A DNA stretch of 40,614 nt from a virus. Shown here piece by piece: positions 2,622-6,196 of this stretch (positions are counted from its first letter, which is position 1; every line of letters starts with the position of its first letter). Location of the stretch: the UHGV virus genome UHGV-0081829; one strand, given 5' to 3'. A program made the position numbers and the translations under genes. The notes below the pieces were generated by a model. It ran no database searches, was not told the DNA's origin, and was given only the letters and a program-made list of their open reading frames with translations.

Positions 2622-2987
2622 TTACTTAACCAATGATGCTGCATATTCGATAAGGTAAAGCTTTGGAGCAAGCCAAATTTTTAACCAGTCGAAATAATTG
2701 AAGAAAACAACAATAGAAGTAATCGCTATTCCTGATGTTACAAGTAGCGATAAAAGAACAATATCCGCATCATCTCCTTTATTCCATGCAAAAATCATCA
2801 GATAAACACATGCTATAATCACCAATACACAGAGAGCCTGAATCCCAGCTGATGATACGGCGTGCCACATCAAAAGCTGATGGATAACATCAGGAATCTG
2901 TGCTTGGCTAAATGAAACAGCCGCATCTATTCCATTGCTGGCTTTTTGCAGTAGTTCTACGAGAATCTTGTTTGCTTGTTCTTCCAT
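2622..2987 (-). CDS. Small membrane protein (two predicted TM helices), hypothetical
   Basis: 121 aa with hydrophobic stretches LCVLVIIACVYLMIFAW and LLSLLVTSGIAITSIVVFF; ATG at 2987 with AAGGTGA upstream. Confidence 0.55.
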   Translation of the reverse strand: MEEQANKILVELLQKASNGIDAAVSFSQAQIPDVIHQLLMWHAVSSAGIQALCVLVIIACVYLMIFAWNKGDDADIVLLSLLVTSGIAITSIVVFFNYFDWLKIWLAPKLYLIEYAASLVK

Positions 2988-3126
2988 ATATCACCTTAAA
3001 TAGTGGTTTGCGGTAGTAAAGATTGCGCCTGTCTTTTAACCACATCAGGCTCGGTGGTTCCTTCACTTTCCACAGTCAAAGGAAATGGGTAGACTGTTGT
3101 TTCCACAGTCAAAAGAAGGAGTTCAC

Positions 3127-3381
3127 ATGTCAGATGTATCTCTTGTTAAAATCATTGAGGATTTAAACGACAGAGTTTCAAAACTGAGCACTGAAAACCT
3201 CGCACTCCAGCAAGCGATCATTTCGATAGTTTCTGCTATGCCGCCTGAGCAATCATCACATGCAAAAAAGCATCTTGATGAAGTTATTAAGTTTGTTGAG
3301 AAGGAGGGTTCAGCGGCTGCTATTGAGGTGCTGGAAGTTCAGAAACCGATTTATCAAATGCTTTTCGCTCACGTGAAATAG
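3127..3381 (+). CDS. Hypothetical protein encoded antisense to the leftward early operon
   Basis: ATG at 3127 with AAGGAG 5 nt upstream (MSDVSLVK...); preceded by two 14-bp direct repeats; track ORF 3085..3381. Confidence 0.45.
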   Translation: MSDVSLVKIIEDLNDRVSKLSTENLALQQAIISIVSAMPPEQSSHAKKHLDEVIKFVEKEGSAAAIEVLEVQKPIYQMLFAHVK

Positions 3382-3736
3382 TTTCTGCCTGATTAATCAT
3401 TACCTGAGCCTGCTGGCGAATAGCTTCACTGGCAGGCTCTTTTGTTAAGAGTTGTGTGAAACCAGCGATAATGTTGCTGGCTAACATCTCAAACCGTTTT
3501 TTCTGAATATCTCTTGATTCTTCATCAATTGGGGGTTCAATATTGCTTAGTGCCGTTACATATACGTGAATTGCCGCTGACCGGACATCATCAGGAAGAT
3601 GTTCAAGTGTACTGGCTCTTGTTTTTACAAGTTCGATAATATTTGCCTTCTTAATATCTTCAGTTTTTTCATCAATTACTGATATAAAATTTTTTACTGA
3701 TGCTTCTAAAGAGCTTTCTAATTTACTTAAATCCAT
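3320..3736 (-). CDS. Hypothetical protein downstream of N
   Basis: ATG at 3736 (MDLSKLESS...) with GAGGT 5 nt upstream, directly after the N stop; 3' end overlaps the plus-strand gene by 62 nt. Confidence 0.45.
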   Translation of the reverse strand: MDLSKLESSLEASVKNFISVIDEKTEDIKKANIIELVKTRASTLEHLPDDVRSAAIHVYVTALSNIEPPIDEESRDIQKKRFEMLASNIIAGFTQLLTKEPASEAIRQQAQVMINQAETISRERKAFDKSVSELPAPQ

Positions 3737-3738
3737 AA

Positions 3739-4047
3739 TTACCTCGCCGTCAGTTGTTTTGATTTCCGGTAGCCTGCCGCGTAAATGGCTACGTTTGGCA
3801 GGCAAATACTTCCACTGCATTCGTCGGTATTTTGGTTACGAATGTTGCCGAGTGATATTGCTTTTTCAGAAAGGCTTAAACGCTTTCTTGGGGATTCCTG
3901 AACAGGTTCCTCACTGTCTGTGCCGAAGATAGAATCAATGATGTTGCAGATGGCATCACGCTCGATAGCCAGCTTTCTGCGCCGCTCATGACGGCGAGTT
4001 TTGGCATTTCCTGCAAATGTTGATTTTCCGTACACGATTACCGTCAT
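3739..4047 (-). CDS. N: Early antitermination protein N (P22 gene 24 type)
   Basis: Begins MTVIVYGKSTFAGNAKTRRHERRRKLAIERD with an arginine-rich motif, ends ...AAGYRKSKQLTAR, closely matching P22 gp24 as recalled; GAGGAAAA before the ATG at 4047. Confidence 0.8.
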   Translation of the reverse strand: MTVIVYGKSTFAGNAKTRRHERRRKLAIERDAICNIIDSIFGTDSEEPVQESPRKRLSLSEKAISLGNIRNQNTDECSGSICLPNVAIYAAGYRKSKQLTAR

Positions 4048-4488: not shown

Positions 4489-5241
4489 TTATGCTGCAAG
4501 TCTCTTAACCCAAGTCTCTCTTTTGGAGAATGGTAGAACTTGGCTTGATTCATGGAAGAGTAAGGAGAGTTGTTGCATTTGGTCACCAATTGCTTCGCTG
4601 TCTATAACAACAAATCTGTTGTTATACTCCTCACTTGAAGCTTTAAGATCAATTAGTTTCCCAAGCAATGAGTAAGCACTATTCCAGCTTCCTCCGTGTT
4701 TCACGCTTGATGTAAAAACGTATTTAGGTATGTCGGTTTTTATTGTTACAGGGACGGTAATTTGATGTCCACTCAAGCCATATACGTTTTCACGAAGAGA
4801 AAGTGCGTCTCTAAGCTCTGTGTGATATAGATAATCAATAACCATACTTTCAAACTTTTCAGCTTGAACTGGCTGATACCAGTCTAACGACAAAGTTGAT
4901 GCGAGTATACCAGCTCTAATTATGTTCGATGTAATAGCACCGACATCCTTTTCTGTTGCCCAAGCAATGATTTCTCCTCGATCATTGAGCTCTGCGCCTT
5001 CTTTAAGCAGTAATTGTCGTATCTCATCAAGTCGTTTTTTGGTAAGCGAGATCCCTCTTGCCTCCATATTCATTAAGGCATCGCATCTGTCACTAACTAA
5101 ATACCTACCATTGACTTCACGGATAAAGGCACCGACATGCTCTCCATCATCACAGTAAGTGAATGGACTGATAATTCTCAAGGTCTTGCCCATTGGATGG
5201 CATTCGAAACCTAGTTGTGAGATCACTGTTGAGCACATCAT
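4489..5241 (-). CDS. Hypothetical 250-aa protein, third gene of the cI-downstream cargo cassette
   Basis: ATG at 5241 overlaps the upstream stop (ATGATG/TGA at 5236-5241); no family recognised; AT-rich by eye. Confidence 0.5.
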   Translation of the reverse strand: MMCSTVISQLGFECHPMGKTLRIISPFTYCDDGEHVGAFIREVNGRYLVSDRCDALMNMEARGISLTKKRLDEIRQLLLKEGAELNDRGEIIAWATEKDVGAITSNIIRAGILASTLSLDWYQPVQAEKFESMVIDYLYHTELRDALSLRENVYGLSGHQITVPVTIKTDIPKYVFTSSVKHGGSWNSAYSLLGKLIDLKASSEEYNNRFVVIDSEAIGDQMQQLSLLFHESSQVLPFSKRETWVKRLAA

Positions 5242-5795
5242 ATTCCAAACCCCATTTGCCCCGACTCATCTTCAAGTGGTAAAGGTATTCTCCCAGAGTA
5301 AGTTATGTTCAGATGTTTACAGAAGTAATTCCAATACCCTACCAGGTCATCTGGGTTTATGTCATCTTCGATTGGAAACGCTATTCTATCACTATAGTAT
5401 CCAGCTTCTTCATAGTATACATGGTAGTGAGCACCGTAAATGATATCTTGGTACTTCGGATGATCGACCTTGTAACTATTCGTGTGTTTGTCAAAGTGAT
5501 AGGTATCTACCGCGAAAACCCTCTTGTTATGATAGAAAGCAATAATATTTATTTTAGGGTAAGAAATCGGGTCATCAGGTTCTGAATCCTGATCTGGTTT
5601 CCATTTCAGTTCAAACTTTAGCCCTTGTATAGGTATACAATCCTCATCCAAGGGGATGATATGAGCTTGTAGCCACATATCAGAGCGACTTGGTTTCTGT
5701 TTCCATTTAACTCCAGAAAAGTTAACTATTTTTTTACAATAAAGTACTTTATCAACTTCTATTTGGCTTGGCTGATAATCATCTATTTTTGCCAA
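5238..5795 (-). CDS. Hypothetical 185-aa protein, second gene of the cargo cassette (start uncertain: TTG at 5795 or ATG at 5678)
   Basis: Track ORF starts on TTG; first in-frame ATG is at 5678; rich in Tyr/His/Asp/Pro (..YGAHYHVYYEEAGYY..); no family recognised. Confidence 0.45.
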   Translation of the reverse strand: MAKIDDYQPSQIEVDKVLYCKKIVNFSGVKWKQKPSRSDMWLQAHIIPLDEDCIPIQGLKFELKWKPDQDSEPDDPISYPKINIIAFYHNKRVFAVDTYHFDKHTNSYKVDHPKYQDIIYGAHYHVYYEEAGYYSDRIAFPIEDDINPDDLVGYWNYFCKHLNITYSGRIPLPLEDESGQMGFGI

Positions 5796-5854: not shown

Positions 5855-6196
5855 TCATCCGAAGAAGCAGCAATCCGGGTCAGCACGCACAAGCTCAAGC
5901 GCATCGGTCAGCGAAAGCTCAGTACTGTACTGATGCCATTTCATATCCTTCCGCATCCAATAGATTTTCCATCTATCCAGAGAACGTATGTACTTGATTC
6001 TTGCTGATGGCAGGATGTTTGTTTCACCAGGATTGCCCTGCCACACGGGGCGCTGTTCACCGATATCTATCGTTTGGTCATTGATGCTATAAACAATATC
6101 CAGTTCATTGCGGATATGTTCAGGCGGCCTTATGCTTTCAATGAATTGGTGAACTTCTTTTTTTACTGCTTGATATTCAAGGTCAGTGAACGCCAT
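5855..6196 (-). CDS. Hypothetical 113-aa protein immediately downstream of cI (possibly DUF3024-like, unverified)
   Basis: AAGGAGG 5 nt before the ATG at 6196, only 9 nt after the cI stop; Trp-rich C-terminal half; flanked by a 17-bp direct repeat. Confidence 0.55.
   Translation of the reverse strand: MAFTDLEYQAVKKEVHQFIESIRPPEHIRNELDIVYSINDQTIDIGEQRPVWQGNPGETNILPSARIKYIRSLDRWKIYWMRKDMKWHQYSTELSLTDALELVRADPDCCFFG

Follow-up and report, generated by a model that had tools for sequence, protein, structure and literature searches.

We believe that positions 3061-3460 of the window (the whole stretch of virus DNA analysed here, UHGV virus genome UHGV-0081829, 40,614 nt) are an accessory, or “moron”, cassette that occupies the sieB slot of a lambdoid prophage and carries a rightward promoter of the sieB type, an 84-aa cargo gene and a terminator. 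Judged by comparison of sequences, this reading has a probability of about 0.7. The first-pass annotation had seen here a separately regulated moron or regulator with its own operator or attenuator. The moron part of that proposal is supported by a gene under selection, a promoter region of the sieB type, an intrinsic terminator and a slot that holds other cargo in related phages. As a single gene the cassette is ordinary prophage cargo, and its context is more useful. A modest case for an experiment can be made for the shared promoter module, for the co-variation of its two repeat copies and for the conserved antisense partner ORF.

The prophage in the window is lambdoid, and a cI-like repressor gene, a cro-like gene and a cII gene are found further right of N. 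The slot is defined by the antiterminator N gene itself (3739-4047, minus strand; Pfam N_peptide, E = 2.4e-40; phrog_271), and the cassette region lies between the ral-side genes and N, against the pL operon. DNA searches found many phages and E. coli prophages with matches to the flanks 3000-3060 and 3734-3800, the interval between them being replaced. In lambda, HK140, VT1-Sakai and others, this interval is filled by sieB; lambda sieB (34482-35036, plus strand) is convergent with N, and sieB of P22 has the same arrangement. Since the plus-strand ORF of the window lies between sieB-carrying flanks in a sieB-like orientation, it occupies the slot and the orientation of sieB. The cassette shares with sieB of lambda and P22 the location between the ral side and N, the convergence with N and the place directly after a conserved boundary of 41 nt.

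This boundary (3020-3060, with no strand assigned) precedes the cassette. Lambda, P22, SfV, Rac-like and Klebsiella phages share it at 95-100% identity, and the homology ends at 3060. The boundary holds two interleaved inverted repeats, GCCTG (3027-3031) with CAGGC (3046-3050) and AACCAC (3038-3043) with GTGGTT (3054-3059); where relatives differ in the arms, the changes compensate one another (GCCGGG/CCCGGC and AACCCTC/GAGGGTT in L003-L007). The boundary might be a terminator or a processing site for the pL transcript made without N; we presume that it possibly corresponds to lambda tL1.

The plus-strand ORF begins with ATG at 3127-3129 and its stop ends at 3381; a Shine-Dalgarno (SD) sequence, AAGGAG (3116-3121), stands 5 nt before the ATG, and the ORF overlaps the minus-strand ORF 3320-3736 by 62 nt; the ORF, the AAGGAG and the overlap are as first annotated. 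The homologs found make up 13 clusters, every one of them 84 aa long and 71-96% identical, and a profile search against 1.84 billion representatives returned just 8 clusters, of 79-87 aa. Relative to the window, dN/dS is 0.07-0.22; outside the overlap, the variable sites amount to 22, 7 and 57 of 64 at the first, second and third codon positions, respectively. The 84-aa ORF is a real gene under purifying selection, and the minus-strand ORF is not the sole conserved frame. That the plus ORF is spurious and the minus frame alone is real is hardly credible. Such a view could appeal to the PGAP annotation of strain 09-00049, in which the plus ORF is left uncalled and the minus ORF is extended to 150 aa (in strain PEC41, PGAP annotated both). 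It is opposed by the constancy of the length, exactly 84 aa in all homologs down to 71% identity, by the strong third-position bias and the low dN/dS given above, by the strong SD, and by the retention of the plus ORF where the long minus ORF is absent, as in L006 and L007.

An alternative in-frame start at ATG 3085, which would give a protein of 98 aa, was rejected: in relatives, a stop codon interrupts the frame two codons further on. This triplet stands directly after an SD-like AAGGAA that follows the first of two upstream repeats. A vestigial SD and ATG at this place are what is expected if a 33-nt unit was once duplicated.

The product of the gene is small, acidic and predicted to be soluble and all-helical. 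Neither this protein nor that of the minus ORF has a match above threshold in Pfam, PHROG, NCBIfam or PADLOC. The AF2 model of the 84-aa protein consists of four helices at a moderate pLDDT of 69.7, and Foldseek found nothing with E<1 for it in the PDB. The suggestion that the gene encodes a regulator is not supported, as no DNA-binding family or fold matches. The cargo also differs from sieB in having no SieB similarity: BLASTP against lambda SieB gave E = 0.85, and PHROG, Pfam and NCBIfam gave no SieB match. The one functional lead is the position, because in P22 and lambda this slot is the site of an exclusion gene expressed by the prophage.

Downstream of the gene, 25 nt after the plus stop, there is an intrinsic terminator on the plus strand (3406-3446), a hairpin at 3406-3439 followed by TTTTGTT. 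The hairpin has a dG of -22.3 kcal/mol (z = -3.0), and none of 200 shuffles was as stable. Possession of a terminator of its own agrees with what is expected of a lambdoid moron. A terminator-like site is present in 13 of the 20 distinct cassettes of the 84-aa family and in a minority of the other cargo families. The hairpin is kept in relatives; it lies inside an antisense coding segment, and its conservation therefore has two possible causes. The only match obtained from Rfam was sub-threshold and fell on this hairpin.

Upstream of the gene, TTTCCACAGTCAAA occurs twice, at 3067-3080 and 3100-3113, and ACAGTC (3072-3077) with GACTGT (3092-3097) forms an inverted repeat. Both features are present as the first-pass annotation reported them; the two copies are exact, and the match between them extends to 17 of 18 positions over 18 nt. 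They are the sole matches to this motif with fewer than three mismatches in the 40.6-kb window, and matches with three mismatches are at shuffle level (9 found, 5.8 expected). The annotation had suggested looking for the repeats in relatives: both copies are kept even where the 84-aa protein is only 71-75% identical.

The closest guide to these repeats is P22. Directly after the boundary, where its sequence reads tgtACCCCTACAGcgagaaatcggaTAAACTctattcACCCCTACAG, P22 has ACCCCTACAG twice, 34 nt apart, flanking the sieB -10 hexamer TAAACT. The P22 GenBank record gives TGTACC...TAAACT as the sieB promoter, and the annotated start of the sieB RNA (29727) is an A, the first base of the second ACCCCTACAG. 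Lambda carries both ACCCCTACAG copies as well. The window reproduces the P22 layout (direct repeats 33-34 nt apart placed directly after the boundary, a TAnnnT -10 between them and copy 2 at the RNA start, the last of these predicted here) with a spacing of 33 nt instead of 34 and with a different repeat sequence, TTTCCACAGTCAA as against ACCCCTACAG. Copy 1 (plus strand) overlaps the -35 region and is the counterpart of the P22 copy that lies inside the annotated sieB promoter. The predicted -35 hexamer, TTTCCA (3067-3072), is inside copy 1 and 17 nt upstream of the predicted -10 hexamer TAGACT (3090-3095), which aligns with TAAACT of P22.

When 31 distinct elements with five repeat variants are aligned, T at 3090 and A at 3091 are invariant and T at 3095 is at least 90% conserved; this TAnnnT pattern is the signature of a putative sigma-70 -10 element. 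The column of the P22 start aligns with position 3102 of the window. Transcription most likely starts at about 3102 (+/-2), inside copy 2, with a leader of about 25 nt, the site being taken over from P22 through an alignment in which the repeat sequences differ. With the start predicted there, copy 2 would therefore be the 5' end of the mRNA. TTTCCA and TAGACT are weak hexamers with a joint score of 8/12, below the threshold of the consensus promoter scan, which found nothing at this region. In the window there is no TG extending the -10, as there is in the family consensus TGnTATATT.

From these alignments, we regard the two repeats as part of a widespread promoter architecture of the sieB type and not as an attenuator. 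The annotation had described three segments that can pair alternatively; in a leader attenuator, copy 1, GACTGT and copy 2 would form alternative hairpins controlling read-through into the 84-aa gene or its translation. ACAGTC and GACTGT are indeed complementary, and GACTGT can pair with either copy, but the same GACTGT is nothing other than the end of the -10 hexamer TAGACT plus GT. Relatives that have the same repeat carry TATATT, TATTTT, TATGTT or TAACTT at the -10 position, none of them complementary to the repeat; TATAAT or TAAACT, likewise not complementary, also occurs there in relatives, and the 6-nt inverted repeat is not conserved in the wider family. By homology to the P22 start, the first two segments would be located upstream of the transcript. 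The fold of 3061-3135 (-11.2 kcal/mol) is no better than that of shuffles (mean -14.2 kcal/mol, z = +1.1), no U-tract follows any of the hairpins, and Rfam offers no match. Attenuation is thus a highly improbable explanation of the repeats.

A hairpin enclosing copy 1 is found in most variants, with differing stem sequences and a stability of up to -14.8 kcal/mol. It was rejected as a feature of the window, being weak here (-5.2 kcal/mol, z = -0.2) and absent in some variants. A search of literature full text with the repeat sequences matched only unrelated primers, the original sieB promoter paper lying outside that search; nothing about promoter repeats was found in the literature on sieB, tL1 and ral.

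The promoter of the sieB type, as read above, is a reusable module. A search for the two-copy pattern found at least 120 viral contigs with the repeat variant of the window. The ORFs that come first downstream of copy 2 belong to 12 unrelated families, with lengths of 54-136 aa; the family of the window accounts for 24 loci. The commonest cargo is a protein of 91-98 aa, which matches Pfam GhoS at 22.7 bits (cutoff 21) and phrog_8894 and is found in L009, L011, L017, L022 and about 30 more viral contigs. GhoS is the endoribonuclease antitoxin of GhoT. Others among the families are zinc-ribbon or helical proteins and belong to PHROGs of unknown function. In Hafnia phage Meifeng and Salmonella phage MS2 LVA, elements of the window type stand before other ORFs. 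L243 shares the promoter sequence of the window without a difference up to AAGGA; an unrelated 60-aa ORF follows, and homology resumes at about 3455-3461. These joints therefore define the cargo as about 3121-3460, the left joint lying at about the Shine-Dalgarno sequence. Polymorphism of cargo in one and the same slot, as described for morons, is seen with sieB and other ORFs in the same flanks, in L243 and in the 12 families.

Few E. coli genomes have the exact version of the window (13 of 5426 complete ones), and the motif pair is present in species genomes of many Enterobacterales genera. Matches to the pair outside the Enterobacterales have odd spacings, and their numbers are about chance level. 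Complete cassettes also occur in tandem, on the same strand, 500-760 nt apart and with different variants (A and C in L010, L029, L063 and L108; A and B in L083 and L092), each cassette with its own copy of the boundary. A portable module next to N, made up of the boundary, the co-varying repeats and the -10 element, gives a sequence handle on cargo genes that, as with sieB, may be expressed by the prophage, and that gene callers and family libraries largely miss.

The co-variation of the copies was assessed in loci sampled by the boundary alone, with no selection for repeat type (n = 149). Two direct repeats 33-34 nt apart are present in 95 of them, in at least five sequence variants: TTTCCACAGTCAA, ACCCCTACAG, TCCCCAACAA, CCCCAATGCAA and CCCCCACAA. 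The best 10-mer match of the two copies in a locus has a mean identity of 9.4/10, as against 7.7 with permuted partners, and in 2000 partner permutations the observed identity was never reached. In the 33-nt unit of the window, the motif is identical in 14 of 14 positions, the hexamer in 2 of 6, the 4-nt spacer in 0 of 4 and the tail in 4 of 9; in P22 likewise, the motif is identical and the remainder of the duplicated unit has diverged. Since the identity of the motif is kept while the rest of the unit has diverged, something keeps the copies alike; and since the copies co-vary between promoter variants, some function needs them to match. Either a single factor binds both, or a nucleic-acid interaction requires their identity. 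Why the copy in the -35 region and the copy at +1 must remain identical is a question that can be tested.

These data bear on two further explanations. The repeats could be a functionless remnant of a tandem duplication of a 33-nt promoter-proximal unit comprising the hexamer, the motif and an SD-like tail. The units 3057-3089 and 3090-3122 do share a layout of hexamer, 4 nt, motif and G/A-rich tail, and a single-copy hairpin class (TGGTATCCT, a motif-like loop, SD and ATG) is found after the same boundary. A mere remnant is nevertheless improbable, considering that the motif is perfectly preserved in a unit otherwise near random, in P22 as in the window, and that the identity of the copies is maintained in five diverged variants. 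The repeats may, on the other hand, be operator sites of one dedicated repressor or activator, bound at the -35 region and at +1; this would refine the explanation that we prefer and exclude nothing. The copies cover the -35 region and the start site, with a fixed distance of 33-34 bp, about three helical turns, between them; this is in keeping with an operator, as is their co-variation across at least five variants with divergence of the flanking parts of the unit. The 40.6-kb window, however, holds the motif nowhere else, and when 6177 ORFs from 175 typed loci were clustered, none of the neighbouring protein families followed the repeat type; only the cargo (sieB, ral and the cargo families themselves) was associated with it. 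With one motif common to 12 unrelated cargos, the cargo itself cannot be what binds it. Moreover, the same motif extends across many Enterobacterales genera, yet variants differ within one host range, a pattern expected neither of a simple host factor nor of one encoded locally. An operator is a possibility that we hold as doubtful.

A regulon of the motif was dropped from consideration, as further TTTCCACAGTCAAA copies were not found in the 40.6-kb window. Sites of DnaA, CRP, IHF, the OmpR/PhoB type, sigma-E and sigma-28 resemble the repeat in part by eye, but none of them holds across the variants, and they were rejected.

The other 54 of the 149 loci form the single-copy class, with TGGTATCCT, a hairpin in which the SD is the 3' arm, and ATG (for example, L134, L135, L137, L172, L196, L197, L214, L226 and L233). 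TGGTATCCT is an extended -10-like sequence, and the loop of the hairpin resembles the repeat motif. This class has the look of the same module with a single copy, perhaps controlled at the level of translation; a duplication or deletion could connect it with the two-copy class.

The overlap of the 84-aa gene with the minus-strand ORF appears, from its recurrence among relatives, to be a feature of the family and not an accident. The ORF 3320-3736 itself reads as a mosaic of an N-proximal gene and a tail encoded by the cassette. The first 94 codons (3455-3736, minus strand), the ATG of which lies 2 nt after the N stop, belong to a leftward gene that elsewhere, beside other cargo, is a 99-aa protein ending in AGFAKLTCC; dN/dS for this part is 0.22-0.35. 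The C-terminal 45 residues (3320-3454, minus strand), fused in frame, are encoded opposite the terminator and the 3' end of the 84-aa gene, in antisense, and are homologous to a stand-alone leftward ORF of 48-64 aa. An open antisense frame in the same register crosses the plus stop in all 23 distinct cassettes, including very diverged ones. In the unfused versions it begins with an ATG preceded by a strong SD (e.g., AGAGAGGTAAGT-ATG), 64-76 nt beyond the plus stop, or 118 nt in L096. The stand-alone proteins are basic and Q-rich, and align with one another.

For 21 codons outside the plus ORF, pN<pS in 10 of 10 comparisons. Within the overlap, the plus ORF is less variable at third positions (10/20, as against 57/64 outside it) and more variable at second positions (7/20, as against 7/64). 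We consider the small antisense ORF to be probably coding, the constraint on the terminator hairpin being a confounder. Gene callers almost never call it: a homolog search found just 2 called clusters, and PHROG had no match for the small antisense ORFs. An obligate or toxin-antitoxin pair formed by 3127-3381 and the whole of 3320-3736 does not agree with the distribution of the two, as the 94-aa N-proximal part is found with other cargo and the plus ORF is found without this part. Only the C-terminal antisense segment always accompanies the plus ORF, and these two make a candidate overlapping pair of sense and antisense proteins.

We presume that the cassette works as follows. A sigma-70 promoter of the sieB type, with copy 1 over the -35 region, TAGACT as the -10 and a start at about 3102, would drive a rightward RNA; from its leader of about 25 nt with AAGGAG the 84-aa protein would be translated, and the transcript would end at the hairpin and T-tract of 3406-3446. 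By analogy with sieB, expression would take place from the repressed prophage. After induction, N-antiterminated transcription from pL would run antisense through the cassette and override it, and the small convergent partner ORF, here fused to the preceding gene, would be read from the pL side.

A bolder version would be that the prophage-expressed 84-aa protein and the convergent small basic protein, an antidote or partner made from pL during phage growth, are a pair of the SieB/Esc kind, and that the co-varying -35/+1 motif is a control element not described so far, belonging to a reusable promoter module that drives many unrelated prophage cargos of Enterobacterales. We find this combination unlikely as a whole and state it as a conjecture. 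A possible mechanism for the motif is a complementarity between copy 2, at the 5' end of the mRNA, and a loop formed by copy 1 in the antisense pL transcript.

The sieB locus and promoter of P22 and lambda, together with the P22 circuit of SieB, Esc and sas RNA, were reportedly described by Ranade and Poteete in 1993, the circuit in Genes Dev. In the self-immunity of P22 SieB, the antidote is an in-frame truncated SieB (Esc) together with an antisense RNA, sas (PMC12197685). The likeness to the window is that a gene on the prophage side of the slot faces an opposing product, which the other strand or an incoming phage supplies. No internal in-frame product of the Esc type is evident in the window, and its counterpart would instead be the convergent small antisense ORF, a candidate separate protein encoded on the opposite strand.

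The moron concept is said to come from the work of Juhala, Hendrix and colleagues on HK97 and HK022. As with lambdoid morons, the window has an extra gene inside an operon, with its own terminator and a predicted promoter of its own, and presence and cargo vary between similar phages. It differs from them in that the promoter is a shared reusable module found before at least 12 unrelated cargos, sometimes in tandem, and in that the G+C content of the cassette (0.418) is like that of its surroundings and not distinct from it.

Several neighbouring genes deserve mention. The first leftward gene past the cassette (2622-2987, minus strand) is in the place of ral and encodes a 121-aa membrane protein (phrog_3054) with a weak resemblance to 2TM effector models (PADLOC, E = 0.08). 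PADLOC gives matches to candidate defence systems for three genes that lie between N and the repressor: 5855-6196 (minus strand) matches PDC-S43 / DUF3024 (E = 7e-42), and 5238-5795 and 4489-5241 (both on the minus strand) are a PDC-M24A/B-like pair (E = 5e-4 and 3e-10, respectively), the B-like gene 4489-5241 containing DUF1828.
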